Source of the DNA: a virus
Virus genome (UHGV): UHGV-0168080
Direction: 5' to 3' (one strand)
Length of the DNA: 23,956 nucleotides
This document shows positions 638-19,454 of this stretch, in pieces (position 1 is the first letter of the stretch; each line of letters starts with the position of its first letter). The notes beneath the pieces are model-generated. The model saw nothing but the letters and a program-made list of their open reading frames with translations. It was not told where the DNA came from and did not search any database. Made by a program: the position numbers and the translations under genes.

Positions 638-698
638 GTGTGTTACAGAGGTTCGTCCGGGAACGGGCGTTTTATTATAAAACAGTGAGAGGTGAACG

Positions 699-1319: not shown

Positions 1320-1383
1320 TTAGCCAGGTAACACAGTGTTATGACAGCCCGCCGGAACCGGTGGGCTTTTTTGTGGGGTGAAT

Positions 1384-4215: not shown

Positions 4216-4790
4216 TGGCATTCAGAATGAGTGAACAACCACGGACCATAAAAATTTATAATCTGCTGGCCGGAACTAATGAATTTATTGGTGAAGGTGA
4301 CGCATACATTCCGCCTCATACAGGTCTGCCAGCAAACAGTACCGATATTGCACCGCCAGATATTCCGGCTGGCTTCGTGGCTGTTTTCAACAGTGATGAT
4401 GCATCGTGGCATCTTGTTGAAGACCATCGGGGTAAAACAGTTTATGACGTGGCATCAGGGGACGCGTTATTTATTTCTGAACTCGGTCCGTTACCGGAAA
4501 ATGTTACCTGGTTATCGCCGGAAGGGGAATATCAGAAGTGGAACGGCACAGCCTGGGTGAAAGATGCAGAAGCAGAAAAACTATTCCGGATCCGGGAGGC
4601 GGAAGAAACAAAAAACAGCCTGATGCAGGTAGCCAGTGAGCATATTGCGCCGCTTCAGGATGCGGTAGATCTTGAGATCGCAACGGAGGAAGAGAAATCG
4701 TTACTGGCCGCATGGAAGACATATCGGGTGTTGTTGAATCGTGTTGATACATCACTATCTCCAGATATCGAGTGGCCAAGTCAACCATAA
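4215..4790 (+). CDS. tfa: Tail fibre assembly protein Tfa
   Basis: 191 aa, lambda Tfa-like ([48 protein letters not shown]...); the start overlaps the stf stop (TAATG). Confidence 0.9.
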
Positions 4791-4797
4791 ATCAATA

Positions 4798-4816
4798 TCC
4801 CCTGCAATGCAGGGGA
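4798..4816. terminator. Hairpin between convergent tfa and sopB, candidate bidirectional terminator
   Basis: TCCCCTGCA-A-TGCAGGGGA inverted repeat flanked by A/T-rich sequence on both sides. Confidence 0.5.
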
Positions 4817-4822
4817 TAATTC

Positions 4823-5788
4823 TTAATTATCAGTAGATTGTTCCTCTAGTAACAACTCAATTTTGCTTAGTATTTCTTTAGATATTTTGCGGCTATCAAT
4901 TTTTATAGTTACAAAATTCCCTTTATATCTAGCCGTGATCCCTTCCCCATATTTTTTCTCGTCTTTTGTTTTTTCCTCGTCGCCAACCAGAACAGAGTCA
5001 GATAATATTTGTATAATCCGTGAAGCTTCTAAATCCTCGCCGTTTTTTTTTATTGTCAGAAGATGATGAGCAGCATTGCTCATGGCAGCCATGTTTTTTT
5101 TGTAAATCTTAAACAAAGAATCTCCAGCACGAGCTGACAGTTCTCCTGGATGATTGAAGATAGCTAATATATCTTTTGGTAGACCAGCTGTATTAATACA
5201 GCGAGTGATAATATTTCTATCTATATTTTCAGCCTCGGCCAATGCTTTAACGTTACCATCAAAGTCATTTAGCTTGCGTAAGTATCTCTTTCCTCTTTCG
5301 TATGCACTAATAGGCCTATAATCGTTACCAATTTGGGATAACCAATGCATCTGTTCATCGTCGAGATCACCAATTAAGACGCGATAGTCACATCCTGTTA
5401 ATATCGCTGCTTTTCTTCTACGTGAGCCGTCAGCGACTTCAACGATTCCAGATACTTTTCTGGCGAAAGCTGGATTTTGTTGTCCAGACGTTAGAAAAGA
5501 TGGGATTAAATCGGCTAGAGAGGATTCATTTAATAAATCTTGATCGCGTTCATTACCTAGCCATACCATTGTTGCCATTTCAACTTTATCTGCGGGAATT
5601 GTCTCTAACTTAAAGTTAACATTACGTCCGCATACTGGCAAAGTTATGCTGTTACCGGTTAATGAACTCAGTTGACGTTTTAAATCACCAACCATAGGTG
5701 ATACGGGCTGATGTTCAGGGGCATGATGATTATTACTCATAATGCGATTAATATCTGGAGCATTTTTTAGAAGAGAGCGCTGTTTCAT
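4823..5788 (-). CDS. sopB: Plasmid partition protein SopB (ParB family centromere-binding protein)
   Basis: 321 aa with F SopB-like blocks (ITLPVCGRNVNF, LGNERDQDLL, DGSRRRKAAILT, YRPISAYERG); start overlaps the sopA stop. Confidence 0.9.
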   Translation of the reverse strand: MKQRSLLKNAPDINRIMSNNHHAPEHQPVSPMVGDLKRQLSSLTGNSITLPVCGRNVNFKLETIPADKVEMATMVWLGNERDQDLLNESSLADLIPSFLTSGQQNPAFARKVSGIVEVADGSRRRKAAILTGCDYRVLIGDLDDEQMHWLSQIGNDYRPISAYERGKRYLRKLNDFDGNVKALAEAENIDRNIITRCINTAGLPKDILAIFNHPGELSARAGDSLFKIYKKNMAAMSNAAHHLLTIKKNGEDLEASRIIQILSDSVLVGDEEKTKDEKKYGEGITARYKGNFVTIKIDSRKISKEILSKIELLLEEQSTDN

Positions 5789-6954
5789 TATTCGTTCTCC
5801 CAGCGAGGTTTTATTAGATCATCAAAAATTTCTCTGCAAACAGGGTCCCATATAGAAACAGCATTTCTCCATGCATTCAATGTTGAACGTTGGTTTGCTG
5901 CTTGTTCAAATACTGTTCTCATTTTTATCTGGCCTTTACCTACTTCATCGGTAACGCGTACAACCTGACGTAATACCATTGATCCCCATGTATTTCTTAT
6001 TTGTTCTTCCATCCATCGTGATTGATTCCCTGTAGTGAGACTATATTTAGTCAGAAGTAAGCGAACGGTTGGCTCAAATCCACCTAGGTCAACGCTTTCC
6101 AATAGATCGAGAAGCATTGTGAAAAACTGTAGAACAGAAGCGTAATCAAATAATTCTGCAGGTGTAGCAACAACAATAACGTCAGCGGCACAAACAACGT
6201 TAATGGTTCCTGTACCGAGGTTCGGAGCACTATCTATAACGATAACATCGTAGTTATCCCAAACTGATTCAATAGCTGCGCGCAGCATAAGGTGTGGAGG
6301 ATGAGGCAATTTACCCTGAGCATGATATTGCATGAGATCTGTTTCTATACGATGTAAAGCTAGGCAGCTAGGGATAATGTCTAGCCCAGGCCAACATGTT
6401 GGCTTTATAGCATATTCAGCGTTATCGCGTTCTCCTAAGTAAAATGGCAGTAAAGTATCCTCGGCATGGATATGTAAATCAGGAACATAACCGTGATACA
6501 TAGAGGCTGTACCTTGAGGATCGTTACCTTCAACCAAAAGAACACGATGACCTTGTAATGCTAACCATTGAGCTTGATGTACCGCAGACGATGTTTTATA
6601 AACGCCGCCTTTGTGTGACATAACGGCAAGAACAACAGGGTTTTTATCTTGTGGTCGTTGGTTTGGGTTGCCAAAAACTGCTCGCATACTGTTGATTTGA
6701 TCTATGGTATAACCAGCACGACGTTCAATTCTTCCTCTCATTTCAAAGTCAGGTGCAGGTAAACGCCCGCTCTTCTCAGCATCTCTAATTGCTTGAGGAG
6801 TTACACCAATTAAATCTGCTACTTCAGTAATACCCCATCGGCGGGTGATACGCCGAGCTTCAGGACTATCATCACCGAATTGAGCGATAGCAATTGCTTG
6901 GGTCATTTCTTGACCTCTCGTAACACAATCTTGCAATAGCTTTTTCAAAGACAT
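5788..6954 (-). CDS. sopA: Plasmid partition ATPase SopA (type Ia ParA)
   Basis: 388 aa, collinear with F SopA as I recall it; deviant Walker A KGGVYKTS; N-terminal HTH extension (AIAIAQFGDDSPEARRITRRW); RBS GGAG upstream. Confidence 0.95.
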   Translation of the reverse strand: MSLKKLLQDCVTRGQEMTQAIAIAQFGDDSPEARRITRRWGITEVADLIGVTPQAIRDAEKSGRLPAPDFEMRGRIERRAGYTIDQINSMRAVFGNPNQRPQDKNPVVLAVMSHKGGVYKTSSAVHQAQWLALQGHRVLLVEGNDPQGTASMYHGYVPDLHIHAEDTLLPFYLGERDNAEYAIKPTCWPGLDIIPSCLALHRIETDLMQYHAQGKLPHPPHLMLRAAIESVWDNYDVIVIDSAPNLGTGTINVVCAADVIVVATPAELFDYASVLQFFTMLLDLLESVDLGGFEPTVRLLLTKYSLTTGNQSRWMEEQIRNTWGSMVLRQVVRVTDEVGKGQIKMRTVFEQAANQRSTLNAWRNAVSIWDPVCREIFDDLIKPRWENE

Positions 6955-6975
6955 ACTGTCATCTCCAGCTTGTAA

Positions 6976-7053
6976 CTTTGCTTAATAATTAAATCTTTGC
7001 TTATTTCTAGCAAATTTGCATGAAAAAGGCAAAGCAAAAAGAAAAACGCAAAG
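6976..7053. promoter_or_regulatory. sopAB promoter/operator region with clustered CTTTGC/GCAAAG hexamers
   Basis: CTTTGC at 6976 and 6995, TTTGCA at 7015, GCAAAG at 7029 and 7048, immediately upstream of the sopA start; F SopA autoregulates through CTTTGC repeats. Confidence 0.5.
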
Positions 7054-7242
7054 GAGAATTTTTAAGCTAAATCATCTTTTGTTCCCCTCCCGAAATGCAT
7101 AAAACGAACAACAACATAATCATAAGTAATTGATATTTATTATATTTTTTGAAGAAAGGAAATCATGTAAAACTAGGGAAACATGATAAGAATCATCAAT
7201 GAGATACGTTTTCTCTATTAGTTCTCCCAACCTTACCAATAC

Positions 7243-7310
7243 AAGAACACAAATAAAGAACACAAAAACTAAGTAATGATGCAAACATAATAAAGAACAC
7301 AAATAAAGAA
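7243..7310. repeat. 18-bp direct repeat AAGAACACAAATAAAGAA (x2) plus a further AACACAAA copy on the left flank of the telomere site
   Basis: Exact 18-mer at 7243-7260 and 7293-7310; the reverse-complement motif ATTGTGTT recurs on the right flank (7481, 7503, 7562). Confidence 0.6.
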
Positions 7311-7391
7311 TTAAAGCTAAATGTTAAATAAAGCAGTACACAAAATGAGAATATTACACTAAATAAGAACACTAATCAAGAACATAACGAA

Positions 7392-7433
7392 ACATAATTC
7401 CCCATTATACGCGCGTATAATGGGGAATTATGT
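7392..7433. other. Telomere-resolution site (telRL/tos core): 42-bp perfect palindrome with a central CGCGCG
   Basis: ACATAATTCCCCATTATACGCGCGTATAATGGGGAATTATGT is its own reverse complement, with symmetry centre at 7412/7413. The central 22 bp (CCATTATACGCGCGTATAATGG) is identical to the N15 telO core as I recall it, and the site lies directly upstream of telN. Confidence 0.85.
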
Positions 7434-7603
7434 ACTGATTATCGAAACAAAGTCAAGGAACAAAATTTCACGTTCTGCTATTGTGTTTCATTTTATAGTC
7501 TGATATTGTGTTCTACTATTTTGTGAGTAAGTTAACTAGGTATTGGTTATTTTATTCTTAAATTGTGTTACGATAATCTGAGCGGATAATCAGGAGAAGA
7601 AAG

Positions 7604-9493
7604 ATGAGCAAAGTAAAAATCGGTGAATTAATAAACTCACTTGTTAGCGATGTTGAGTCAATAGATAACTCTGACCGTCCTCAAGGAGAGAAAACAAAAA
7701 AAATAAAGGCCGTTGCATTAAAATTTAAAAATACATTATTTAATGATAAGCGAAAGTTTAGGGGAAAAGGATTAGAAAAGAGAATTACAGCCAACACATT
7801 CAATTCCTATATGAGCAGGGCCAGAAAACGGTTTGATGATAAACTTCATCATAGTTTTGAAAAAAATATACATCGACTATCTGAAAAATATCCTTTATAT
7901 AATGAGGAGCTATTGTCATGGCTCTCTCTACCTGCTGCCGATATTCGCCGGAGAATGTCAGCTTTACAGGCAAAATTAAAATTAATTATTCCTCTGTCCG
8001 AAGATTTATCTAATATCAGAATTGGTGATAATAAAAATAATAATAAGTTAATAAAGTTATCAAATAAATATAAAGAATGGCAATTTGCCATTTCTGATTT
8101 AACTAGCGATAACTGGAAAGATAAACGCGATTATTTATATAAATTACTACAGCAAGGGTCAGCCTTGCTTGAGGAGTTGAATCAGTTAAAGGTTAACCAT
8201 GAGATTCTCTATCATCTCAAACTAAGCCCTGCCGAACGCGCATCTATCCAGCAACGATGGGCGGACGTACTACACAATAAGAAACGTAACGTAGTAGTCA
8301 TTGACTACCCTAAATATATGCAAGCTATTTACGATATTATAAATAGCCCTGCTACATTAAATAATCTAAACACTCGTTCAGGCATGGCTCCTTTGGCATT
8401 TGCTCTTGCTGCATTATCAGGAAGACGAATGATTGAGATTATGTATCAAGGTACATTTACTGTCTCTGGTAAGTATACCGTTGATTTTTTAGGTCAGGCT
8501 AAAAAAAGAACTACTGATGATGTAACCAGAAAAATATATACATTATGCGAAGCAAAAACGTTTGTTTATTTAATAAATGTACTTCGCTCATGCCCAGCAG
8601 CATCTGATTTTGATGAAGTCGTTATGGGTTACGGAAATAACGACACGCGGTCTGAAAACGGACGTATTAATGCCATATTGGCAAAGGCTTTTAATCCATG
8701 GGTTAAATCATTTTTCAATGATAATCGCCGTGTTTATAAAGATAGTCGTGCTATTTATGCCCGTATTGCGTATGAAATGTTTTTCCGCGTAGATCCCCGT
8801 TGGAAAAATGTAGATGAAGATGTTTTCTTTATGGAAATTTTAGGCCATGACGATGAAAACACTCAATTACACTATAAACAATTCAAGCTGGCCAACTTCT
8901 CAAAGACATGGAGGCCAAATACTGGAAACGAAAATACCAGGCTGGAAGCATTGCAGCTGCTTGATGACGAAATGCCTGGATTCGCCAGAGGAGATGCCGG
9001 GGTTCGTCTGCATAACACAGTTAAGCAGCTGGTAGAGCAGGACCCCTCTATAAAAATCACGAACAGCACTCTAAGAGCATTCAAATTTAGCCCAACAATG
9101 ATTAGTCGATACCTGGAATTTGCTGCTGATGCTCTGGGGCAATTTGTTGGCGAAAATGGACAATGGCAGCTGAAAATAGATACTCCAGAAATCGTTATGC
9201 CTGACGAAGAAGAGCTGGAAGCAATACCTGAACAGATGGATGAATTATCAGAGGATGACGATCTGGATGACGACGAAATTGAGATAGAGGAAGAGGAAGA
9301 GAGCGTAGAAGAACAGCAACCGCCAGCGCCTTCTTCACCTGTATCTAAGCCGGTATTTAAGCCTGTGAGAAATATTGGTGATGGCTCATACGTTGTTGAG
9401 TTTCATTATAATGGCCAGAATTATGCGTGGTCAGGCAGTGCAAACAGCCCCATGTCAGCAATGCAGTTAGCATGGCTGACATATTTCGGCTAA
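7604..9493 (+). CDS. telN: Protelomerase TelN (hairpin telomere resolvase)
   Basis: 629 aa; near-collinear with N15 TelN from the N-terminus (MSKVKIGELIN...DRPQG.KTK.IKA...NDKRKFRGKGL.KRITANTFN.YMSRARKRFDDKLHHSF) to the C-terminus; acidic C-terminal tail; RBS AGGAGAAG. Confidence 0.95.
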   Translation: MSKVKIGELINSLVSDVESIDNSDRPQGEKTKKIKAVALKFKNTLFNDKRKFRGKGLEKRITANTFNSYMSRARKRFDDKLHHSFEKNIHRLSEKYPLYNEELLSWLSLPAADIRRRMSALQAKLKLIIPLSEDLSNIRIGDNKNNNKLIKLSNKYKEWQFAISDLTSDNWKDKRDYLYKLLQQGSALLEELNQLKVNHEILYHLKLSPAERASIQQRWADVLHNKKRNVVVIDYPKYMQAIYDIINSPATLNNLNTRSGMAPLAFALAALSGRRMIEIMYQGTFTVSGKYTVDFLGQAKKRTTDDVTRKIYTLCEAKTFVYLINVLRSCPAASDFDEVVMGYGNNDTRSENGRINAILAKAFNPWVKSFFNDNRRVYKDSRAIYARIAYEMFFRVDPRWKNVDEDVFFMEILGHDDENTQLHYKQFKLANFSKTWRPNTGNENTRLEALQLLDDEMPGFARGDAGVRLHNTVKQLVEQDPSIKITNSTLRAFKFSPTMISRYLEFAADALGQFVGENGQWQLKIDTPEIVMPDEEELEAIPEQMDELSEDDDLDDDEIEIEEEEESVEEQQPPAPSSPVSKPVFKPVRNIGDGSYVVEFHYNGQNYAWSGSANSPMSAMQLAWLTYFG

Positions 9494-9504
9494 AACATAC
9501 GTTA

Positions 9505-9529
9505 AAGGCACCGAATTAATCGGTGCCTT
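9505..9529 (+). terminator. Hairpin after telN (10-bp stem AAGGCACCGA/TCGGTGCCTT, loop ATTAA)
   Basis: Perfect 10-bp stem 12 nt after the telN stop; the downstream T-run is weak (GTTATGTGG). Confidence 0.55.
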
Positions 9530-9665
9530 GTTATGTGGCCCACCTCGCCTACCCCCTGCAAAGGGCAGAAGTAACGGAGGAAACGCGGCTGCAACCACAG
9601 ACATCACCGCCCCGACTGCGAGGCTTCCCTTCTCTGAGAAGGGCATAAATTCGGGCTGGCCAACC

Positions 9666-10448
9666 CTATTTATTGGTGATTTCTGCTGGCTTTAGCTGCG
9701 CGGATAACTGCTCAAGTTTTTGAACTGCCAGTTCAAAATGCGCGGGCAACGCCTTTTCCAGATCAGAGTTAATATCGGTGATGGGCAAATCACCACACGA
9801 CATACTCCGCCTACCCCCACGAACAACATCACGCAACAACTCTCGTTCATACGTGCGCATGTTCCCCAATGCCGACTCAGCAGCCGTTAAAATCCGGCGC
9901 AGTTCTGCCGTAATTGCTGGTAAATCATCAACCGTTATGGGGTTCGGGGATGGATTACGACACGCCCGACGCAAAGCCAACCATACACCGCTAATCCAGG
10001 CATTTCGGTACTGAAAACTTTGTGCTATATCGTTGATCAGCCCTCGCAGATACTCTTTCTGCCTCCAGTTCAACGGCTCTGCTGCTCGCATTGGCTCAGG
10101 TTCGACGTAAACGTACTCTCCATTCTTACGAATAGAGGGCAGGACCTCGTTCGTTACCCATTTACGAAACCGCCATGCAGTCGTGCCCTGTTTTACAGCG
10201 TCACGGCAGCGGAGGATCAGGGTGTATAGACCTGACTCTGAAATAATATTTAGCTTTTGCTCTCCGCCAGGGGTGTAACTTAAAGTTACACCCTTTTCAT
10301 CCTCATCCAGAGACATTAGCGCCTTCCGGGAGTTAACGAGTCTTAAAGCATCACATACATCCTTAGCCACAAACCACGGCTCGCCGTTAATCATCACTAC
10401 ACGAACCTGATGCTCTTCCTGAAAGGAAAAGACTGCTAACGCGCTCAT
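9666..10448 (-). CDS. Bro-N domain antirepressor (Ant-like)
   Basis: 260 aa; N-terminal Bro-N hallmarks (F.F......VRVVMINGEPWFVAKDVCDAL...LDEDEKG...GGEQKLNIISESGLYTLIL); strong RBS AAGGAGG; last gene of a three-gene operon with ATGA overlaps. Confidence 0.8.
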   Translation of the reverse strand: MSALAVFSFQEEHQVRVVMINGEPWFVAKDVCDALRLVNSRKALMSLDEDEKGVTLSYTPGGEQKLNIISESGLYTLILRCRDAVKQGTTAWRFRKWVTNEVLPSIRKNGEYVYVEPEPMRAAEPLNWRQKEYLRGLINDIAQSFQYRNAWISGVWLALRRACRNPSPNPITVDDLPAITAELRRILTAAESALGNMRTYERELLRDVVRGGRRSMSCGDLPITDINSDLEKALPAHFELAVQKLEQLSAQLKPAEITNK

Positions 10449-10675
10449 TCAGCCTCCTTACCCAGCAATTGCGACGAGAGCGACGCGGAATACCCCTGTG
10501 CTTCATGAGTTAACTCACACGCGATTTGAAGGAGCTTCCCGGCTTCTGATAGATAAATCGACGCCTCACAGCTGGATACTGTCCGATGGGCTGATGATAC
10601 GAGCGCATAGACCTGAGCCAGACGTTCATCCAACGACTCCAGCAGGCCAACAGTGTTCATTTTTACCTGATTCAT
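10445..10675 (-). CDS. Small protein of the antirepressor operon (function unknown)
   Basis: 76 aa; RBS GAGGTGG; start overlaps the upstream stop and stop overlaps the ant start. Confidence 0.6.
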   Translation of the reverse strand: MNQVKMNTVGLLESLDERLAQVYALVSSAHRTVSSCEASIYLSEAGKLLQIACELTHEAQGYSASLSSQLLGKEAE

Positions 10676-10836
10676 ACAGCCACCTCGCGCACCGGAATAC
10701 GGGCAGACAATACCAGGACAAACCGGCTGGCGAACTGGCGACGAGCTTCCCGTTCAGATGACGCGATGGTGGAAAGATGATGGATGTGTGACTTTTTGTC
10801 TGTGCGAACGACTGCCGCAAATTTGAATTTGAACAT
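10672..10836 (-). CDS. Small first gene of the antirepressor operon (54 aa; Icd-like by position only)
   Basis: Not in the supplied ORF track (under 60 aa). Read by hand on the minus strand: MFKFKFAAVVRTDKKSHIHHLSTIASSEREARRQFASRFVLVLSARIPVREVAV; GGAG RBS; its stop overlaps the next start (ATGA). Confidence 0.45.
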   Translation of the reverse strand: MFKFKFAAVVRTDKKSHIHHLSTIASSEREARRQFASRFVLVLSARIPVREVAV

Positions 10837-10891
10837 GGTATGCACTCCGTTTAATTGGTCGTGCTACCACCAGAGTTCTCACGCTCTTGAA

Positions 10892-10973
10892 TGGTGGTAG
10901 CCCAAGCGGGGGTGAGAATACCGGCAAACGAAGAAACCGGCCTGACCGAAGTCAGCCCCGCCTGAGCCACCAT
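10892..10973 (-). ncRNA. Structured RNA-like element A in the antirepressor operon leader (candidate c4/CA-type antisense immunity RNA or its target module)
   Basis: About 82 nt bounded by GGTGG...CCACCA; minus-strand fold gives a long closing stem and an internal hairpin CUGAC-UUCG-GUCAG. Paralogue of element B. Confidence 0.45.
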
Positions 10974-11207
10974 AAATCGGATATGCGCAGGTATATACAC
11001 ACAAAAAAACACGCTGGCGCGTGTTGTGCGCTTCGTTTATCCGGGTTCTCACGCCCGGCTGCGGGATTTACCGCAGCGGAATAACTTTACCGTCAAAACG
11101 ACGCACACGTCAATAATTTGCAAAGACATTTTACCCTGTGACCAGTCACGGGGATAGGTGTTTTTATAGTTTGCTTAAACAAATGATTAGAAGATAAACG
11201 ATATTGT

Positions 11208-11287
11208 GGTGGTAGCCCAGGCAGGGTTCTCAACACCGGCCCAAACGACACCGGCCAGCCTTTCGGCTGCCCCGCCTGAACTACCAT
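11208..11287 (-). ncRNA. Structured RNA-like element B, paralogue of element A
   Basis: Same architecture and end motifs (GGTGGTAGCCCA...CCCCGCCTGA); the internal hairpin is CAGCC-GAAA-GGCUG on the minus strand, so the stem is kept by compensatory changes. Confidence 0.45.
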
Positions 11288-11390
11288 TAGAATAATATAC
11301 AACAAAACGTAGCATTTTTATTACATTAAAATATAAATATTGTTTACACTTTACTTTACTAATGGGGCGGCTCGGGCTATCCTGATTTTG

Positions 11391-11406
11391 CTGTATAAAA
11401 ACACAG
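11391..11406. promoter_or_regulatory. LexA (SOS) box CTGTATAAAAACACAG upstream of cma
   Basis: Fits CTGT-N8-ACAG; lies about 60 bp upstream of the colicin M ATG, as is usual for colicin promoters. Confidence 0.6.
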
Positions 11407-11467
11407 TATTTATGCAGCGATTAAACCTGTATGTCTGTTATTTCATTAACTTATAAGGGTTTTTGAT

Positions 11468-12283
11468 ATGGATACTATCGTTGTGACAGCTCCATCACCA
11501 TCAACTAACTTACCGAGTTATGGTAATGGCGCATTTTCTCTCTCAGCACCACACGTGCCTGGTTCTGGCCCCCTTTTAGTCCAGGTGGTTTACAGCTTTT
11601 TCCAGAGCCCAAACATGTGTATTCAGGCTCTAACTCAGCTTGAGGACTACATCAAAAAACACGGTGCCAGCGATCCCCTGACATTACAAATTATGTCAAC
11701 AAATATTGCCTACTTCTGTAACGCTGACAGAAACCTTATCCTTCACCGCGGAATAAGTGTTTATGACGCCTACCACTTAGCTAAACCTGCGCCAAATAAA
11801 TATGACTATCGCTCAATGAATATGAAACAAATGAGCGGTAATGTCACAACACCAATTGTGGCGCTTGCACACTATTTATGGGGTAATGGTGCAGACCGAA
11901 GCGTTAATATCGCAAATATTGGTCTCAAAATTTCTCCGATGAAAATTAATCAGATAAGAGATATTGTAAAATCTGGTGTAGTAGGCACATTCCCTATTTC
12001 TACAAAATTCACACACGCCACTGGCGATTATAATGTTATTACCGGCGCATATCTTGGTAATATCACGCTGAAAACAGAAGGTACTTTAACTGTCTCCGCT
12101 AATGGCTCATGGACCTATAATGGCGTTGTTCGCTCGTATAACGACAAGTATGACTTCAATGCCAGCACTCATCGTGGCGTAATCGGAGAGTCTCTTACAA
12201 GGCTCGGGGCGATGTTCTCTGGTAAAGAGTATCAGATACTACTTCCTGGCGAAATTCACATTAAAGAAAGTGGCAAGCGATAA
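11468..12283 (+). CDS. cma: Colicin M (lipid II-targeting bacteriocin)
   Basis: 271 aa, same length as colicin M and collinear with it as I recall the sequence (..APSPSTNLPSYGNGAFSLSAPHVPG.GPLLVQVVYSFFQSPNMC.QALTQLEDYIKKHGAS ... ILLPGEIHIKESGKR). Confidence 0.93.
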   Translation: MDTIVVTAPSPSTNLPSYGNGAFSLSAPHVPGSGPLLVQVVYSFFQSPNMCIQALTQLEDYIKKHGASDPLTLQIMSTNIAYFCNADRNLILHRGISVYDAYHLAKPAPNKYDYRSMNMKQMSGNVTTPIVALAHYLWGNGADRSVNIANIGLKISPMKINQIRDIVKSGVVGTFPISTKFTHATGDYNVITGAYLGNITLKTEGTLTVSANGSWTYNGVVRSYNDKYDFNASTHRGVIGESLTRLGAMFSGKEYQILLPGEIHIKESGKR

Positions 12284-12284
12284 T

Positions 12285-12311
12285 AAAAAGGCCGGGATTC
12301 CGGCCTTTTTT
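12285..12311. terminator. Bidirectional intrinsic terminator between cma and cmi
   Basis: AAAAA-GGCCGG-GATT-CCGGCC-TTTTTT: GC stem with an A-tract before and a T-tract after. Confidence 0.75.
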
Positions 12312-12333
12312 ATGCAGTCTTTATACCGATGTA

Positions 12334-12690
12334 TCAATCATTTGCATATTCAACATAACCTTCCTTGCAATGGTACATTCCATAATACATTCTCTTACCT
12401 TCCGGGCCTTCGGCTTTAAATGGGACGAGAAGCGTTTTTTCATCTTTAACATCTGTTAAGCTTCTTTCAATCTTTTCCCACGTAATTTTTGGGGCTTCTG
12501 TACCGAGAAGTTGTACATCGTTATTCCAACGCGTTATTTTTTTCAAAAAGTCATTTTTTACAAATTCTCTTGCCTGTTCATCACTAACCTTATAGCACTC
12601 TGGGCCTTTATTAGATTCAGGCCAGAAAAATACAATAGCAAGAGCAATAATTGATAAAATCAAAATGATTTTTATGCTAATTACTTTCAT
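12334..12690 (-). CDS. cmi: Colicin M immunity protein Cmi
   Basis: 118 aa; N-terminal membrane anchor (ILILSIIALAIVFFW) and strong resemblance to Cmi (..YKVSDEQAREFVKND....WNNDVQLLGTE.PKITWEKIERSLTDV.DEKTLLVPFKAEGP.GKRMYYGMYHC.EGYVEYAND); convergent with cma. Confidence 0.9.
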   Translation of the reverse strand: MKVISIKIILILSIIALAIVFFWPESNKGPECYKVSDEQAREFVKNDFLKKITRWNNDVQLLGTEAPKITWEKIERSLTDVKDEKTLLVPFKAEGPEGKRMYYGMYHCKEGYVEYAND

Positions 12691-12817
12691 AAAATCTCCA
12701 TCACCTTAAAAGCAAAACATACATATTTAGCCTTCATATTGTATGAGTATATCAATACAGTGTGTGCTTAATGTGAAGTAAAATTAACAATATATAAACA
12801 TTTAATATGCCGCGCAC

Positions 12818-13213
12818 TTAGTCGGCTTTATGAGTATCAACCATATACTTCAACCAGTAATCAACAATCGGTTGCTCATCTACAGAATGTTTACCAGGTA
12901 TAACTCGCCAGCTATCTTGCGAAAATCTGCCGTACTTACGCGGGAATAGGCCTTTCTTTATCTCCCGCCATGTACTAGGAAAACCATCCACAAAAGTACC
13001 AATTAACAGGAGAGGGACAAAAATCAGAGCTACAAACCATCGTGCAAGAAAGTGTTCAACAACAACATTTTCACCGTTGTAGTAATACGCATACGCATCC
13101 AATATGCGAATTTTCCTTACCTTAAAAATAGCCTTATGCTGAGAACGACTTAACTTGATACGAATGTATCCCTTATCCAAAGGGGATTCGTATTTGTATG
13201 ATTGAACAGCCAT
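12818..13213 (-). CDS. Hypothetical protein with one predicted transmembrane helix (function unknown)
   Basis: ATG at 13213 lies 2 nt after the upstream stop (the ORF-track start at 13225 is an in-frame GTG); hydrophobic segment FLARWFVALIFVPLLLIGTFV; I recognise no family. Confidence 0.6.
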   Translation of the reverse strand: MAVQSYKYESPLDKGYIRIKLSRSQHKAIFKVRKIRILDAYAYYYNGENVVVEHFLARWFVALIFVPLLLIGTFVDGFPSTWREIKKGLFPRKYGRFSQDSWRVIPGKHSVDEQPIVDYWLKYMVDTHKAD

Positions 13214-13215
13214 TT

Positions 13216-13545
13216 TTAACCCCACTCACCATCAGCAAACAAAGCGTTATACTCTGATAATGGTAAATGATGCCCCTCAATTGCCAGATTAAGCCCCAAA
13301 TGGGTAGATGGGTGTTCCTTATCTGGCTCCTCCTCCCACAATTCAGAAGCTAAAGAAGCTAAACGCTCAGCCGCTTTCACGTAGTTTTCTGTCCTGAACC
13401 AACCCAAATTAATCCCACCATCAGTGATCTCCCAGGCAACTTTCTTCTCTTCTTCCTGAATAGCCTTAATGCGTCGATCGCATTCATCCCGGCAGAACTT
13501 CAGCTGACGGTAATCAAGTTTGTCCAAAAATGCAGTAGTAGACAT
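13216..13545 (-). CDS. Hypothetical acidic protein (function unknown), first gene of a coupled pair
   Basis: 109 aa; RBS GGAG 8 nt upstream; lies immediately downstream of repA on the same strand; I recognise no family. Confidence 0.65.
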   Translation of the reverse strand: MSTTAFLDKLDYRQLKFCRDECDRRIKAIQEEEKKVAWEITDGGINLGWFRTENYVKAAERLASLASELWEEEPDKEHPSTHLGLNLAIEGHHLPLSEYNALFADGEWG

Positions 13546-13603
13546 ATTTTTACTCCCCGTTCACCGAAAAATCACGATTTCCACATACGATAATATCCAC
13601 TGA

Positions 13604-16600
13604 TTACCCATAGAAAGCGCCCTGCTCTTCGTAGCTGCATGGGCTATTCCCGGTAATATATTCACGTAACCGCCGCAGTTCATTACTGGACAAGTGATCC
13701 ATGAACTCTGTTAGGTACAGAGATGCAAACGTCATAGCTATGCTGGCTGATGACCATGATGACATAGTGGCCAGCTCCTCACAGGAAAGCGCACTCATAG
13801 CCCAGGACTCAGGTACAGCCACCGGCAACACTGCCAAAGCCTCAGAAATTACTGAATGAGGGGCGTTTTGAACCTGCTCATTTGTGGATCGCGTTTTATC
13901 ATCCATATATATATTGAGATCCAAATCGCGATCCATTTCGATGGCGGTCTTCTCGGCTTTGCGCGTTTTCAGGGTTAGGCCATCTTTCTGACGCTGAGCA
14001 AGAATATCCAGCATAAATGCCGCTGATTCAGGCTCAACAAAACGCAAGGTTGGACGCTTATCGCCGTCTCTGCCACGACGTTTACCTGTTTTAAGGCCAA
14101 GAGAGTCGCAAATGTTTTTAAACAACGCTTCCGGCACTTTAGGCTTCCCTTTTGGCGTCATAAAACCACCAATGTGCAGAACGTTATTCAACAGGTCACG
14201 GCGTTCGGCTGTCATGAGGTTATCTCGAGCGAATTTGAGACGCTCCTGAGTCGCCTCGCCGGTCATAGTCTCAGGGTTGATACCGCAGTCGATAAAGTAC
14301 TGCCGGAGAGTTGCTGATTTAAGCGCATAGAAACCGCGCGCCCCGACTTCAACAGTAGGAGTAGCTTTTACCTTGTAGTCGATTATTCCAGGGAATTTAG
14401 TTTTAAAGACATCATCAGCCTGCTCGCGAGTCATCGCGGTCACTACAAAATATTGCCACTGTCCCGCCTGACGGTATGCGTAGGTAAAATTGATGGCTGC
14501 TTCTTCCCGGTCGTAACGACGAGCTGTTACCTCATCTAAAAGCATTGTTTCATAGCGGCGAACTTTGTCTCGAGCACCATCGAAATAGAATTTCAGCGTG
14601 CCTTCTTCAACCGGTAGTTTCAGTTCGTTCTCAATATCCCAGCGGACAAGTTTTGCCTGTTCTTCAAGCGTCAGCGCGCGTTTTTTTAGCAGTTCTTCAC
14701 GCTCTGATTCTTGTGGAGTTTCTGTATTGAGATGCAGATCCAGTGTCTGTTCCCACACAATATCCCGCGCTTCTTTACGCAGATCTTTACCGATATCATT
14801 CGCAGCATAATCGGTGGCCAGCGGCGATACCTTATAACCGTCGCTGTGCATGATGCAGATCATGTTGCTGGCGTAGTCGTTACGCGCAGACGCTTCAATT
14901 GCGGCTGCTTTAATTTTCATCCTGGTAAAGTCGGTATTGGCCACCCCCATTGATATACGGTCGCCATCGAAAACGACATCCGTCAGTTCACCGTTCATGC
15001 CTGCGGTAGCAAGCAATGCCTGGGCGAATGCTCGTTCTATTTTTTGCGGGTCAGTTTCACGTTTTGCGCGAGCTTTATCAAAGCCGATAATAAATTCTTT
15101 TGCTGTACGGTCGCGGCGTAGCATTTGCACTGCGTCGCTGGGTACAACTTCACCACAGAACATGCCGAAATGACGGTCAAAATGTTTTTGCTCAATCGAC
15201 ACGCCGGATGAAATAGACGGGCTATAAATCAGGCCGTCGTATTTTTTGACCATCTTTTTCGGTTGATTGGTAAATGCTTCAACTTCTGGCTCTGGTTTGT
15301 TTTTCTGGTTTACACACAGAAATTTCTTACCAGGAAAATGCATTCTCAGGGTGGCGGTCACATCTTCTGCAAAGGTGGAGCTGTCGGTGGCCAACATAAT
15401 TTTTTCGCCATCCGATACAGCTTTCACCACCTCGGTCATAATGCGATCTTTTTCTGTATAAAAAACCCGGATTGGCTCACCTGTTTCGCGGTTGCGAACA
15501 TCAACAGGTAATTCAATTACGTGGATCTGCAGCCATGCGGGTAAACCGAGTTCTTCGCGGCGTTTCATAGCCAGTTCAGCCAGGTCAACCAGCAGATCGT
15601 TCGCATCAGCATCCACCATGATTGGGTGTTGTTCCGTTCTGGCCAGCGCATCAATTAGCGTATTGAATACAGCCACCGGGTTTTCCATAGCCCGACCGGA
15701 AAGAACGGCACGTAGCCCTTGTGTTGCCTCGTCAAAGCCAAAATAGTCGTGCTGGCGCATCAACGGTTGCCAGCAGTTTTTAACAATCGAGTTTATGCAG
15801 ATGGTCAGTTTACTGGCGTATGGGGCCATTTCCTGATAGCCAGGGTCCTGATAGTGCAGGATATCGGCTTTTACACCTTTTCCTTCAGTCATCATTTCCC
15901 ACAGACCACCAATAAGGGAAACACGGTGAGCTACAGAGATACCACGTTCTGAGCTATGCATTAACGGTCGTAACAATCCAGTAGATTTGCCGGAACCCAT
16001 ACCAGCACGGACGATGACTATCCCCTGTAGTGATTGCACGTACTTCAGGACGTCATCGGTCATTACCGAAGTATCAAAACGCTTATAGGTGATATGTTGA
16101 GGGCGTTTATTGGGATCAGTTATGCGTTCGCTGAAAGAGCGCGGAGCCTGGGCAATACGGCACTTTTTATTCAGGCGACGGGCAATATGGTCTTTTACCG
16201 TAGCGCGATAGATATTTTCCAGCCCCATTTCACGCAGAACGATACAGAACATGTTAAATAAATCTGACGGGCTGTTAGGAACCGGACAGGTCAGCATGCC
16301 AATATCTACCGCTCTCAGCAGCTCTTTGGCAAAAGTACGGCGGTTATCCCGCTTAATTGTCTTCAGGCGGTTGAGTGTCAGAGATAGCAAATCAGTACCG
16401 GTTTTCAGGCGGTTTGCTGTTGCGAATAGTTGACGTGCTGTTTCACGAAGTCCACGTAGTTTGTGCAGGTCGTTGAAGTCACTGCACTCCATTTGCGGAT
16501 CGTCTTCAAAAGTTGGGTAGACGCAGCGGACATCGTTGAATTTAGATAAGATTTCATAGCCAGTCCGCAGGCCGGTATTCCCTTTTCCTTCTGTGGCAGA

Positions 16601-17599
16601 TTTCCGGTCATTATCCAGTGCGCAGGTGATTTTTGCCGCCGGGTACATGTTTACCAGTTGTTCCACAACATGAACCATGTTGTTAGCGGATACAGCGACA
16701 ACCACAGCGTCAAAGCGTTTATCTTTTTTCGTGGCAAGCCAGATGGATGCACCAGTAGCAAAACCTTCTGTAACAGCGATGTTTTGCGCCCCTTTCAGCT
16801 CACCGATAACAAAGCAGGCACCGACGAAATCGCCGCTGGTTACTGCGCTGGTCTGGTATTTCCCACCTTGTTTGTCGATTCGCTGCCAACCCACAATACG
16901 ACCATCATAACGACCGTCCAGGTGAGCCAGAGGGATAGCCATATATGTGGTTGGCCCCCGGCTCCATTTCGCACTGTCGTGACTGGTCACGCGACGCACA
17001 TCACATGAACTAAAAACGTCACGAATACCTTTTTTAATCGCATATGGCCATGAGCCGTCTTCAGCCTGAGCATGTTCCCACGCGCTGTGGAATGCCAGCC
17101 ATCCCAGCAAACGTTCATGGTCCATTTGGTTGTTTTTCAGGTCATTAATTCGTTTTTGTTCTTCACGGCGACGACGTGCTTCGGCCTGACGTTCTATTCT
17201 TTCCCGTTCTTCTTCCGGTTGTGCGACCACGGTCGCATTATTCCGTTGTTGCTCACGGCGATATTCAGAAAACAGGAAGGAGAAACCGCTCCATGAGCCA
17301 GCATCGCTGCCTTTATGGACGAAGTTAATGAACGGGTAATCAATCCCTTTGCTGTGTTCCAGCCTGGAGTAAATTTCTACGCGTCCTTTCAGGCTCTTTT
17401 CGAGAGCTTCTGGAGATGTTTTATTGTATGAAGAGTAACGCTCAACCCCCCCGCGAGGGTTGAGTTGGATGTTGTCGGAACAGGCAGGCCAGTTGATACC
17501 AGCCATCTGTGCCAGCTCGGTTAGTTCATCCCGTGCTGCTTCAATTAGCGAGAACGGATCGCTGCCAAAGCGATCCGCATAGAAATCGTTTAATGTCAT
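13604..17599 (-). CDS. repA: Replication protein RepA (multidomain primase-helicase, N15 RepA-like)
   Basis: 1331 aa; Walker A GMGSGKSTG inside a helicase-like core; size and position (upstream of cB, same strand) match N15 repA. Confidence 0.92.
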   Translation of the reverse strand: MTLNDFYADRFGSDPFSLIEAARDELTELAQMAGINWPACSDNIQLNPRGGVERYSSYNKTSPEALEKSLKGRVEIYSRLEHSKGIDYPFINFVHKGSDAGSWSGFSFLFSEYRREQQRNNATVVAQPEEERERIERQAEARRRREEQKRINDLKNNQMDHERLLGWLAFHSAWEHAQAEDGSWPYAIKKGIRDVFSSCDVRRVTSHDSAKWSRGPTTYMAIPLAHLDGRYDGRIVGWQRIDKQGGKYQTSAVTSGDFVGACFVIGELKGAQNIAVTEGFATGASIWLATKKDKRFDAVVVAVSANNMVHVVEQLVNMYPAAKITCALDNDRKSATEGKGNTGLRTGYEILSKFNDVRCVYPTFEDDPQMECSDFNDLHKLRGLRETARQLFATANRLKTGTDLLSLTLNRLKTIKRDNRRTFAKELLRAVDIGMLTCPVPNSPSDLFNMFCIVLREMGLENIYRATVKDHIARRLNKKCRIAQAPRSFSERITDPNKRPQHITYKRFDTSVMTDDVLKYVQSLQGIVIVRAGMGSGKSTGLLRPLMHSSERGISVAHRVSLIGGLWEMMTEGKGVKADILHYQDPGYQEMAPYASKLTICINSIVKNCWQPLMRQHDYFGFDEATQGLRAVLSGRAMENPVAVFNTLIDALARTEQHPIMVDADANDLLVDLAELAMKRREELGLPAWLQIHVIELPVDVRNRETGEPIRVFYTEKDRIMTEVVKAVSDGEKIMLATDSSTFAEDVTATLRMHFPGKKFLCVNQKNKPEPEVEAFTNQPKKMVKKYDGLIYSPSISSGVSIEQKHFDRHFGMFCGEVVPSDAVQMLRRDRTAKEFIIGFDKARAKRETDPQKIERAFAQALLATAGMNGELTDVVFDGDRISMGVANTDFTRMKIKAAAIEASARNDYASNMICIMHSDGYKVSPLATDYAANDIGKDLRKEARDIVWEQTLDLHLNTETPQESEREELLKKRALTLEEQAKLVRWDIENELKLPVEEGTLKFYFDGARDKVRRYETMLLDEVTARRYDREEAAINFTYAYRQAGQWQYFVVTAMTREQADDVFKTKFPGIIDYKVKATPTVEVGARGFYALKSATLRQYFIDCGINPETMTGEATQERLKFARDNLMTAERRDLLNNVLHIGGFMTPKGKPKVPEALFKNICDSLGLKTGKRRGRDGDKRPTLRFVEPESAAFMLDILAQRQKDGLTLKTRKAEKTAIEMDRDLDLNIYMDDKTRSTNEQVQNAPHSVISEALAVLPVAVPESWAMSALSCEELATMSSWSSASIAMTFASLYLTEFMDHLSSNELRRLREYITGNSPCSYEEQGAFYG
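13885..13935. other. Candidate internal replication origin element inside the 3' end of repA
   Basis: 9-bp inverted repeat TGGATCGCG (13885-13893) / CGCGATCCA (13927-13935) flanking an (AT)5 tract. Confidence 0.3.
17222..17237. repeat. sopC-like centromere box TGCGACC-AC-GGTCGCA (candidate SopB binding site) inside repA
   Basis: 16-bp palindrome with the same architecture as the F sopC core TGGGACC-AC-GGTCCCA. Confidence 0.5.
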
Positions 17600-17647
17600 T
17601 TTTTAGCCATTCCATGCGAATTATGTTTTTTCGGGTTGAAAAAATCC

Positions 17648-17715
17648 GCAGGAGCAGCCACAATAAACGCATCTTGAATTGACGGAATCTGTCGCGTTGT
17701 TGTGGCTGCTTCCTG
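17648..17715. repeat. Long imperfect inverted repeat in the repA leader
   Basis: GCAGGAGCAGCCACAATAAACGC ... GCGTTGTTGTGGCTGCTTCCTG, arms about 22 bp, spacer about 23 bp. Confidence 0.5.
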
Positions 17716-17722
17716 AAAAGGA

Positions 17723-17750
17723 CCCGAGTTTGCCGACTCGGGTTTTTTTT
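17723..17750 (+). terminator. Strong intrinsic terminator on the plus strand, antisense to the repA leader
   Basis: Stem ACCCGAGT/ACTCGGGT, loop TGCCG, followed by T8. Confidence 0.6.
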
Positions 17751-17844
17751 CGTCTTTTTTCTGCTGCTGTAACCTGAGTCAACCCACAGAACATATGCCC
17801 TGCATTAAACCAGATTTACAGCAAACAATAAACCCCGTATTAAG

Positions 17845-18441
17845 TCATCTACCCTCAACCATGAATGATTTGATCGTTCCGACTATTTGGTGAACAAATT
17901 CAAGATCGCTTTTCCTGAAGATGGCGCGTTGTGAGTTTGTTCCATCCAGATAGTAATTTTCATCATCAAAACGGGCCAGGCGCTGGATAGTGATATTTCC
18001 TGCAGTATCACGAACCAGAACATCCTCGCCGGGGACCAGTTCCAGCGCAGAATCGACCAGGAGAAAATCGCCTGGCTGATAGTTTCCCTGCGTAAGATTG
18101 CTGATAGTTAACGCATAAACAGTATTGCGCTGGCTGATGAATGGCAGGAATCGCTCAGTATTTGGAACCTGTCCTGGCTTCCACTCTTCATCAGGTCCAC
18201 TTTCAGTTGTGCCAATAACAGGAATGCGATCAGGGTCATATTCTGTCCCATACAGCACCCAATGCACTGGCTTGCGTAAGCATTTAGCCAGGGCAATACC
18301 TATCTCCAGTGACGGCATTACGTCGCCACGTTCTAAGTTTTGGACGCCTGCAATAGAGATATCGACAGCCTCAGCAACTTCTCGCAACGTCAGCTTCATC
18401 TCTAAACGGCGTGCTTTCAGTCGTTCGCCTCGTGTTTTCAT
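17845..18441 (-). CDS. cB: Prophage repressor CB (CI-like: N-terminal XRE HTH plus C-terminal LexA/S24-like domain)
   Basis: 198 aa; HTH LTLREVAEAVDISIAGVQNLERG; C-terminal region aligns by eye to the LexA/CI fold; divergent from cro across an operator region. Confidence 0.85.
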   Translation of the reverse strand: MKTRGERLKARRLEMKLTLREVAEAVDISIAGVQNLERGDVMPSLEIGIALAKCLRKPVHWVLYGTEYDPDRIPVIGTTESGPDEEWKPGQVPNTERFLPFISQRNTVYALTISNLTQGNYQPGDFLLVDSALELVPGEDVLVRDTAGNITIQRLARFDDENYYLDGTNSQRAIFRKSDLEFVHQIVGTIKSFMVEGR

Positions 18442-18463
18442 AGCTTAATCATAAATGATCTTC

Positions 18464-18505
18464 TTATAGCTGGCTATAAAATTTATTTATTATAGCTGGC
18501 TTTAA
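18464..18505. promoter_or_regulatory. Tandem palindromic operators TTATAGC-TG-GCTATAA between cB and cro
   Basis: Perfect copy at 18464-18479 and near-perfect copy (TTATAGCTGGCTTTAA) at 18490-18505, 26 bp centre-to-centre. Confidence 0.6.
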
Positions 18506-18532
18506 TTGTTGTTTATTGTTTATAATAACAAC

Positions 18533-18754
18533 ATGAAACCAGAAGAACTTATTCGCCACTTTGGCAGTGTAGAAAAAGCAGCGGCAGGGGTAGGTGTAAC
18601 ACCCGGAGCTGTTTACCAATGGTTAACCGCTGGAGAGATTCCTTCATTGCGGCAAAGCGATATTGAAGTTCGTACTGCTTATAAGCTGAAGAGTGACTTT
18701 ACAACTCGGCGGGTAAAGCAGTCGATTAAGGAGAGTCGTAAGCGTGGAGCTTGA
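18533..18754 (+). CDS. cro: Cro-like repressor (HTH)
   Basis: HTH segment GSVEKAAAGVGVTPGAVYQWL; divergent from cB. The ATG at 18533 has no clear SD (the ORF-track start at 18506 is TTG), so the start is uncertain. Confidence 0.6.
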   Translation: MKPEELIRHFGSVEKAAAGVGVTPGAVYQWLTAGEIPSLRQSDIEVRTAYKLKSDFTTRRVKQSIKESRKRGA

Positions 18755-19454
18755 GTATATACGCAGCTGCGTCTCTACGGCATTGGCTGATGTTCATTAT
18801 CGCCAGCGTGGCATTCTGGAGGTCCAGCTTGAGCAGATGCGTCTCGGTAGATCAGGACGGTTTAACAATAAACCAGTCCGGTCAATCAGTGTGGGGGATG
18901 ATAACTCATACGAAGTGTCCGTTCCTGCTGAGCCGGTAAGATTCCACCAGGGGAAAACATTTAAACAATCATCAATGTTGCTCACTGATATTGATTTTCA
19001 GAGCGCCAGCTGGCGCAGGGCTATTGGTCAGTTGAATAACGAGGAATCAGCCTGGCTTTATTATTGCTACGGATGCAAGCCAGATTACAACAATGATGTG
19101 ATTGTTTGTCAGTGGTTATGGCTTGATTTTCTGGTTGCTCATTCGGGGGGCGGCTTTAAAAAAATGAAGGCCTCCACGAAAAAAGCCATGCGGAAATTGA
19201 TTTATTACGCGGCACAGCAGGTTAAATCAGAACTTACGTGTGCTGAGGCAGTTGATGAGAGAGAACAGGACAGGCATCTGAGTTTTCTGCTGAATATATC
19301 TATTGATAGCTGGAGACAAGATTATAAAGAACGCTGGCTTTTAATTAAGTCGCGATGTCTGAGCTTAAATCGAACTGCATTATTAAATGCGGCGGAGAAG
19401 CGCAGTGAAATCATCAAACGCCATCGGGCAGGAAGTGCCATTCTGCCTTTGTAA
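18744..19454 (+). CDS. Putative late-gene antiterminator (Q-like by position) or unknown early protein
   Basis: 236 aa; GTG start with strong RBS AAGGAGAG; lies directly after cro as Q does in N15. The family is not confirmed from sequence. Confidence 0.35.
   Translation: MELEYIRSCVSTALADVHYRQRGILEVQLEQMRLGRSGRFNNKPVRSISVGDDNSYEVSVPAEPVRFHQGKTFKQSSMLLTDIDFQSASWRRAIGQLNNEESAWLYYCYGCKPDYNNDVIVCQWLWLDFLVAHSGGGFKKMKASTKKAMRKLIYYAAQQVKSELTCAEAVDEREQDRHLSFLLNISIDSWRQDYKERWLLIKSRCLSLNRTALLNAAEKRSEIIKRHRAGSAILPL

Follow-up and report, generated by a model that had tools for sequence, protein, structure and literature searches.

An N15-like linear phage-plasmid carries an ortholog of the putative Pinc antisense RNA unit opposite its repA leader

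An intrinsic terminator that reads away from a replication gene, with no gene of its own to terminate, raises the question of which transcript it ends. Such a terminator lies upstream of the minus-strand repA gene in UHGV virus genome UHGV-0168080, a stretch of 23,956 nucleotides that is called the window here. A sequence-only reading of this DNA had pointed to a strong plus-strand terminator (8-bp GC stem, T8) about 125 bp before the repA start, and the element was indeed found there, 123-151 nt upstream of the repA ATG (17599, minus strand). A/T pairs extend its stem to 14-16 pairs, its core occurs once in the window against 0 occurrences expected, and the A4 tract upstream of the stem makes the terminator weakly bidirectional. 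The same reading held that there is no plus-strand gene to terminate, which is borne out: no credible plus-strand gene was found upstream of the terminator; the ORFs opposite repA are all short, and the first plus-strand ORF of 120 aa or more that is met on going upstream has its end at 12283. Our main reading, to which we give a probability of roughly 0.7, is that the locus is the ortholog of the Pinc unit of phage N15 and would produce an antisense RNA of ~80 nt, likely a dose-dependent negative regulator of RepA synthesis with a role in copy number and incompatibility.

Judged by its sequence, the window is an N15-like (Ravinvirus) linear phage-plasmid. The gene order is the usual one for N15-like elements (tail genes, sopBA, protelomerase, secondary immunity region, repA, cB, cro, Q), with the Cro and Q homologues encoded on the strand opposite repA and cB. 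Over 17400-18000, the identity is 100% with Escherichia phage YDC107_1 (Ravinvirus), 98.5% with PhiR46_1 and ~79% with N15, with phiKO2 and with Klebsiella phage-plasmids related to them. Over its first 300 aa, RepA shares 83% identity with N15 RepA; RefSeq plasmids label the product of this gene ‘CyRepA1 family’. Between cB and repA, alignment to N15 places the hexamers of a putative PL promoter (-10 TTTAAT, 17809-17804; -35 TTATTG, 17831-17826) within a segment in which TA-N10-TA operator motifs can be read off the sequence. There are two of these motifs; most of their internal positions differ from N15 OL1/OL2, and the PL hexamers are retained, which suggests that the CB specificity (immunity type) of the window is different from that of N15. 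The coordinates of all features are collected in Table 1.

Table 1. Features in and around the repA leader of the window. Divergence is the mean pairwise difference among 32 N15-like loci in a 1.1-kb alignment.
Feature	Coordinates	Strand	Divergence	Description
repA	13604..17599	-	0.39 (third codon positions)	1331-aa primase-helicase type replication protein, N15 gp37 ortholog
repA translation-initiation region	17597..17621	-		AUUCGCAUGGAAUGGCUAAAAAAUG; RBS annotated at orthologous N15 23-35
-35 hexamer	17636..17641	+		TTGAAA; promoter scan; identical to N15 Pinc -35
Promoter to predicted start	17636..17671		0.003	Lowest in the 1.1-kb alignment
Arm b	17644..17672	-		Sense-strand 3' arm of hairpin I, ...UUGUGGCUGCUCCUGCGGAU; proposed anti-Shine-Dalgarno element
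Hairpin I	17649..17715			Long imperfect inverted repeat; ~21 pairs, one bulge
-10 hexamer	17659..17664	+		CACAAT; promoter scan; identical to N15 Pinc -10; 17-nt spacer
Predicted transcription start	17671	+		A; seventh nt past the -10 hexamer, placed by promoter geometry
Predicted antisense RNA	17671..17750	+		~80 nt, complementary to repA leader -72 to -151; from promoter geometry and terminator
Variable 5' domain of predicted RNA	17672..17715	+	0.37-0.40	Segment between start and terminator; 20 alleles in 32 N15-like loci; includes hairpin I 3' arm
Intrinsic terminator	17716..17750	+	0.018	Stem ACCCGAGT (17722-17729) paired with ACTCGGGT (17736-17743), 6-nt loop TTGCCG, T8 17743-17750; orthologous to N15/phiKO2 annotation
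OL1/OL2 and PL region	17794..17835	-		Orthologous to N15 OL1/OL2 CB operators and putative repA promoter PL; alignment to annotated N15 record only
cB-like prophage repressor gene	17845..18441	-	0.34 (third codon positions)	198 aa; upstream of repA, same strand

A unit of this kind has been proposed for N15. The GenBank record of the N15 immB region (U45242.1) annotates a ‘Pinc; promoter of putative antisense RNA’ (-35 at 56-61, -10 at 79-84), a ‘putative terminator of RNA antisense to repA transcript’ (144-171, +) and a ‘putative terminator of repA leader transcript’ (133-163, -), and also marks the repA RBS (23-35), CB operators and a putative repA promoter PL. In a three-way alignment of the window with N15 and phiKO2, the N15 Pinc and terminator features fall base for base on 17636-17641, 17659-17664 and 17716-17750, and the promoter block, terminator and RBS of the window are identical or nearly so to those of N15/phiKO2. 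The window has the complete arrangement at the orthologous position: a site between the CB-controlled PL/OL (next to cB) and the repA start, on the strand opposite repA, with TTGAAA and CACAAT at a 17-nt spacing, pointing away from repA from 37 nt upstream of its start codon, and a rho-independent terminator ~80 nt downstream. The -35, spacer, -10 and terminator are identical to those of N15, the repA RBS region is nearly so and the RNA length is equal within 1 nt. On these grounds the locus is the ortholog of the putative N15 Pinc antisense unit, which is already known, as a proposal, from the 1996 N15 GenBank entry. The differences from N15 lie in the 45-nt 5' domain of the RNA, which is another allele with most columns unlike, in the A-tract before the terminator (A5 in N15, A4 in the window) and in the neighbouring operators, which are unlike in sequence. 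Phage phiKO2 (AY374448) has the orthologous hairpin and T-run upstream of its gene 35 and the same flanking promoter block; it differs by a tract of A6 upstream, which makes a better sense-direction terminator, by yet another 5'-domain allele and by a record that annotates no antisense RNA. In the complete N15 record and in that of phiKO2, the hairpin is given as a rho-independent or ‘putative bidirectional’ terminator. The accessible literature on CB control of repA, which describes repression of repA by CB and a rise in copy number upon antirepression (PMC4997575, PMC4488713, PMC2847241), makes no mention of an antisense RNA.

The TTGAAA hexamer that the sequence-only reading had noted at 17636 as -35-like is present and pairs with CACAAT, a weak -10 hexamer. 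A promoter scan found two promoter-like matches in 2.5 kb against 3.4 expected, which is not above chance, so that the promoter needs other support, and this support comes from conservation. Relatives of RepA were collected from 69 loci with 48 distinct leaders, belonging to four RepA lineages: N15-like (at least 79% identical), three intermediates (59-63%), PY54-like (47-52%) and Erwinia-type (43-45%). Outside the N15-like and intermediate groups, the leader sequences are unrelated to that of the window. All 48 distinct leaders nevertheless carry, on the antisense strand, a -35 and a -10 hexamer spaced by 17-18 nt and starting 29-38 nt from the repA ATG, followed 70-110 nt downstream of the promoter by a GC-rich hairpin with a T-run. 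The TTGAAA hexamer is invariant in 23 N15-like and intermediate leaders, TTGCGC/TACAAT is another hexamer pair among the leaders, and the -10 variants that occupy the same place in other lineages are TACAAT, TATCAT, TAAAAT and CAGAAT. The RNA predicted from these signals is 80-86 nt long in N15-like and intermediate leaders and 70-109 nt elsewhere.

The divergence profile of the N15-like loci (Table 1) follows the boundaries of the predicted RNA. The invariant block stops at the predicted start (column A36, itself invariant), and later columns vary until the terminator is reached; this pattern points to very strong purifying selection on promoter and terminator within the N15-like clade. Expression signals that are constrained around a body that drifts freely are expected of a cis-encoded antisense RNA, because the target changes together with the RNA body. 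Diversifying selection on this body was considered and rejected, as its divergence equals and does not exceed the synonymous rate; neutral drift of a self-cognate sequence suffices. The suggestion of the sequence-only reading that a plus-strand antisense RNA is a candidate copy-number regulator thus gains support from the N15 annotation and from a promoter and terminator that are conserved in all lineages sampled. Its more specific proposal, a plus-strand RNA of roughly 100 nt fully complementary to the repA leader, is supported as regards the predicted RNA itself; the length has to be corrected to ~80 nt, and the long inverted repeat is not contained in it (see below).

The terminator can also be read from the other side. 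It might mainly be a bidirectional terminator that insulates repA from read-through coming from cB and PL, with hairpin I acting purely in cis and the plus-strand RNA being a by-product. The ‘putative bidirectional’ label in phiKO2, the leader terminator annotated on the repA strand of N15 and the A4-A6 tract before the stem of N15-like leaders, which a sense transcript would carry as a U-tract (U4 for the window, U5-U6 for the N15 and phiKO2 types), all agree with this, as does the fact that hairpin I would form in the sense RNA alone if Pinc is the only antisense promoter. However, the window has no more than U4 there, and PY54 proper (L085, L086) and the Erwinia-type leaders have no U-tract at all, while the T-run on the antisense strand (4-9 T) is present in every lineage. 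Since the T-run is always found and the A-run is not, the conserved job of the hairpin would be to stop the antisense transcript. Moreover, an insulator leaves unaccounted for that the antisense promoter is the most conserved stretch of 36 nt in the 1.1-kb alignment (0.003 against 0.39 at synonymous positions) and that its geometry is kept in lineages in which the surrounding sequence is unrelated. We therefore consider an insulator that makes its RNA only in passing an unlikely explanation. The same U-tracts bear on the earlier suggestion that the hairpins could serve as a leader attenuator on the minus strand, which is only weakly upheld for the window with its U4; PY54 proper and the Erwinia types lack the tract. 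Hairpin I combined with the U6 was likewise tried as a sense-strand attenuator and rejected: a CGGA gap leaves 4 nt between stem and U6, a non-canonical arrangement that the scan did not list, the U-run is lacking outside the N15-like clade (PY54- and Erwinia-type leaders), and antisense pairing would abolish the hairpin.

The ~22-bp-arm imperfect inverted repeat that had been described just before the terminator is confirmed as hairpin I (Table 1). Its core arms (17653-17666 and 17697-17710) are 93% complementary. The 5' arm (17649-17670) is made up of promoter spacer and -10 hexamer plus the 6 nt that follow, and the 3' arm lies within the predicted antisense RNA. Because the 5' arm is upstream of the predicted start, the long repeat falls outside the ~80-nt RNA, and hairpin I would belong to the sense repA leader, or else to a longer antisense RNA, but no promoter for such an RNA was found. 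Thirteen representatives, drawn from all four lineages, were folded as the sense strand, and each of the 13 gave a significant hairpin I (z -3.3 to -5.8, 0/200 shuffles each); the arm sequences are unrelated between lineages, yet complementary. All 36 distinct leaders examined for this geometry have 16-24 hairpin I pairs whose 5' partner is upstream of the predicted start. In 35 of them this start is 1-3 nt away from the apical end of the main stem, and in the remaining one (L078) the distance is 5 nt. Two PY54-like leaders (L081 and L089) have a longer unit, ~100-250 nt upstream of repA, with a predicted RNA of 108-109 nt and extra sub-hairpins inside hairpin I. As the arm GGCGAAA of these two is nearly identical to the RBS GGGCGAAA, the opposite arm UUUCGCC could pair with either.

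A longer antisense RNA, started at an unrecognised promoter upstream of 17649 and possibly overlapping the repA RBS, would include hairpin I as a CopA-like kissing stem-loop. The plus strand of 17640-17760 (121 nt) does fold into two clean, adjacent stem-loops (-55.4 kcal/mol, z = -7.0, 0/200 shuffles as stable), the classical shape of a plasmid antisense RNA, and the counts of G-U versus A-C combinations in hairpin I, used as a strand test (76 vs 81 in N15-like leaders, 33 vs 22 in others), do not tell the two strands apart and so leave room for plus-strand folding. An extended -10-like string, TGAAAAAAT, at 17637-17645 could provide the promoter and would take in hairpin I, but strings of this type are absent from PY54- and Erwinia-type leaders, which keep the hairpin, and we rejected this candidate as it is not conserved in other lineages. 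The scan found no further plus-strand promoter-like site in 16500-19000, and the conserved -35/-10 pair puts the start at the hairpin top in nearly all 36 distinct leaders. A longer RNA thus appears improbable, and less credible than the insulator. Within the ~80-nt RNA of the preferred reading, the terminator is the only consensus helix reported by RNAalifold, with few pairing-preserving changes; no conserved stem-loop was found by RNAalifold in the 5' domain, whose variable part is poorly aligned by MAFFT. Least probable of all is that the inverted repeat works as DNA, for example bound by RepA, by CB or by a host protein, or extruded as a cruciform, and regulates repA transcription without any RNA, since in spite of the extremely conserved 5' arm and the nearby action of CB at the OL operators (PMC4997575), ~22-bp arms set 25-60 bp apart around variable sequence are unlike known operators, arms that differ wholly between lineages and remain complementary are the signature of a folded nucleic acid, and in phiKO2 the mapped binding of CB is confined to the OL part with two OL operator sites, beside cB (PMC4997575).

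If an ~80-nt antisense RNA is made, its effect on repA must be explained over a distance. The predicted RNA does not reach the repA Shine-Dalgarno sequence; its target ends ~72 nt upstream of the ATG, and any control of translation must therefore be indirect. For the N15-like clade, we infer a structural switch to be the most likely mechanism. A constitutive sigma-70-type promoter (TTGAAA-17-CACAAT) would make the RNA, which would end at the GC hairpin and T8 and be perfectly complementary to the distal repA leader, itself transcribed from the CB-repressed promoter beside cB. In the free leader, hairpin I would form and keep its 3' arm off the ribosome-binding site. As the antisense RNA would start at the hairpin top, its free 5' end would find its complement in the loop and upstream arm of hairpin I, a geometry that is good for nucleating pairing. 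Antisense pairing would then invade hairpin I and free the 3' arm (…GGCUGCUCCUGCGGAU), which could pair with AUUCGCAUGGAAUGGCU and so cover the repA Shine-Dalgarno region, the partners including CCUGCGG in arm b and AUUCGCAUGG on the RBS side. Cleavage of the duplex by RNase III could add to the inhibition.

The duplex between arm b and the RBS was evaluated with RNAduplex. It reaches -18.7 kcal/mol in the window (z = -3.7, 0.2% of shuffles as good), and of the six N15-like and intermediate leaders tested, five fall between -18.7 and -22.4 kcal/mol (z from -2.9 to -4.8), N15, the phiKO2 type and two of the three intermediates matching or surpassing the window; the sixth, intermediate L077, gives -15.5 kcal/mol (z -1.8). 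No significant complementarity was found in Erwinia-type and some PY54-type leaders, so that these results do not establish the switch as universal. When the antisense target was masked in a 258-nt leader model of the window, the RBS stretch UGGCU (17609-17605) went from 0.29-0.87 to 0.10-0.34 unpaired; in a coarser test of several lineages, averaged RBS accessibility showed small shifts without a consistent direction, and an effect was seen only in the nucleotide-resolved run on the window. Within the N15-like clade, both arm b and the RBS hardly vary, which rules out a covariation test, and arm b overlaps Pinc, so that its invariance could be explained by promoter function alone. A wider version of the model would make the promoter-in-hairpin design a conserved switch of all RepA-type telomere phage-plasmids: the start would always lie at the apex of the leader hairpin, the downstream arm would double as antisense promoter and anti-Shine-Dalgarno element, invasion would lead to a translation-off fold, and alleles of the RNA body would define compatibility types. 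We regard this generalization as tentative, conceivable rather than probable; neither the promoter-in-hairpin switch nor allele compatibility types were found in the accessible literature.

Two other routes were considered for the step from leader to repA translation. Coupling to a leader peptide, in the style of R1 or IncB, was rejected, as leader ORFs vary in start, frame and length among close relatives and are absent in other lineages. A 57-aa ORF (17621-17794, -) spans the whole repA leader of the window and is not conserved in N15. Another frame (17596-17661, -) ends in a UGA that overlaps the repA AUG (AUGA) and is open for 21-25 codons in most N15-like leaders, with start codons and upstream frames that differ between leaders. 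A search for a leader terminator inducible by antisense binding found none.

With its predicted features, the antisense unit resembles the countertranscripts of plasmid replicons in function. CopA of the IncFII plasmid R1 is a cis-encoded antisense RNA of ~90 nt that ends in a terminator and targets the rep leader (CopT) well upstream of the Shine-Dalgarno sequence. It is a determinant of copy number and incompatibility, works through kissing stem-loops and keeps the tap leader peptide, with which repA is coupled, from being translated. The window shares with this system a short, terminated antisense RNA to the rep leader far upstream of the Shine-Dalgarno sequence, but its predicted RNA lacks a long stem-loop, and no conserved leader ORF coupled to rep, such as tap of R1 or repY of IncB/IncI-alpha, was found. 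In RNAII of pMV158 and RNA-IN/RNA-OUT of IS10, the free, unstructured 5' end of one RNA nucleates pairing, and the predicted RNA, which consists of little beyond a 5' tail and a terminator hairpin, is similar to these. RNAII of pMV158 overlaps the repB initiation region directly, whereas the target described here ends short of the start codon and an indirect step is needed. Attenuation in pT181 and pIP501 is comparable in that a countertranscript to the rep leader meets alternative leader structures; it differs in the antisense-inducible terminator, which has no counterpart here. Lambda OOP RNA is also a short, terminated antisense RNA from the immunity/replication region of a lambdoid genome. 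It targets the 3' end of cII and not a replication-gene leader, and has no sequence relationship with the RNA predicted here.

Linear phage-plasmids of the N15 type have a wide distribution in Klebsiella, Escherichia and Enterobacter and are the basis of linear cloning vectors. The leader matches 214 PLSDB plasmids, mostly from Klebsiella, which carry relatives of it at ~80% identity. Among 5,426 complete E. coli genomes, 18 have the leader, in each case on a plasmid of ~27-75 kb. On 17 of these 18 E. coli plasmids, RefSeq annotates nothing under the leader (17600-17800). Rfam gave no match at the gathering threshold in 17500-17900, and in a further check the matches were to generic hairpins and all fell below threshold (26.4 bits for the best, where 39 would be needed). 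The predicted small RNA, unannotated in RefSeq and without an Rfam family, is thus routinely missed. The unit as such is not a new finding, given the 1996 proposal for N15, and its discovery value is small; it is a real and well-conserved element, probably a regulatory one. What is added here are corrected RNA boundaries, the conservation across all sampled RepA-type telomere phage-plasmids and the promoter-in-hairpin architecture with a possible anti-Shine-Dalgarno switch. In the replication region, no non-coding bases are under tighter constraint than those of promoter and terminator, while the RNA body is allele-like. If its alleles drift yet stay self-cognate, they could set compatibility types among co-circulating N15-like elements, which might be used to predict the compatibility of co-resident phage-plasmids, and the unit might serve to tune vector copy number. 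None of the 5,426 complete E. coli genomes carries two such plasmids.

Some further observations concern other parts of the window and its closest relative. In the sequence of YDC107_1 (CP025712.1; L097), positions 600-18200 form a large inverted duplication whose centre is close to the protelomerase gene, and in one of its arms repA and the protelomerase gene are split into fragmentary CDSs; this is probably an assembly read-through of the hairpin telomere. A second copy of the leader, sought in the window in view of this duplication, is absent and the leader is single-copy. Rfam matches at gathering level, specifically two to C4 antisense RNA (82 and 69 bits) and one to isrK (64 bits), are clustered at 10890-10977, 11004-11077 and 11205-11291 on the minus strand. 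This cluster looks like a secondary immunity region of the P1 c4/N15 CA RNA type, located upstream of antirepressor genes. In addition, a full-length Rfam match to IS009 (4558-4756, +; 199 bits, E 1e-48) overlaps the end of an ORF (4215-4790) beside the sopBA-like genes.
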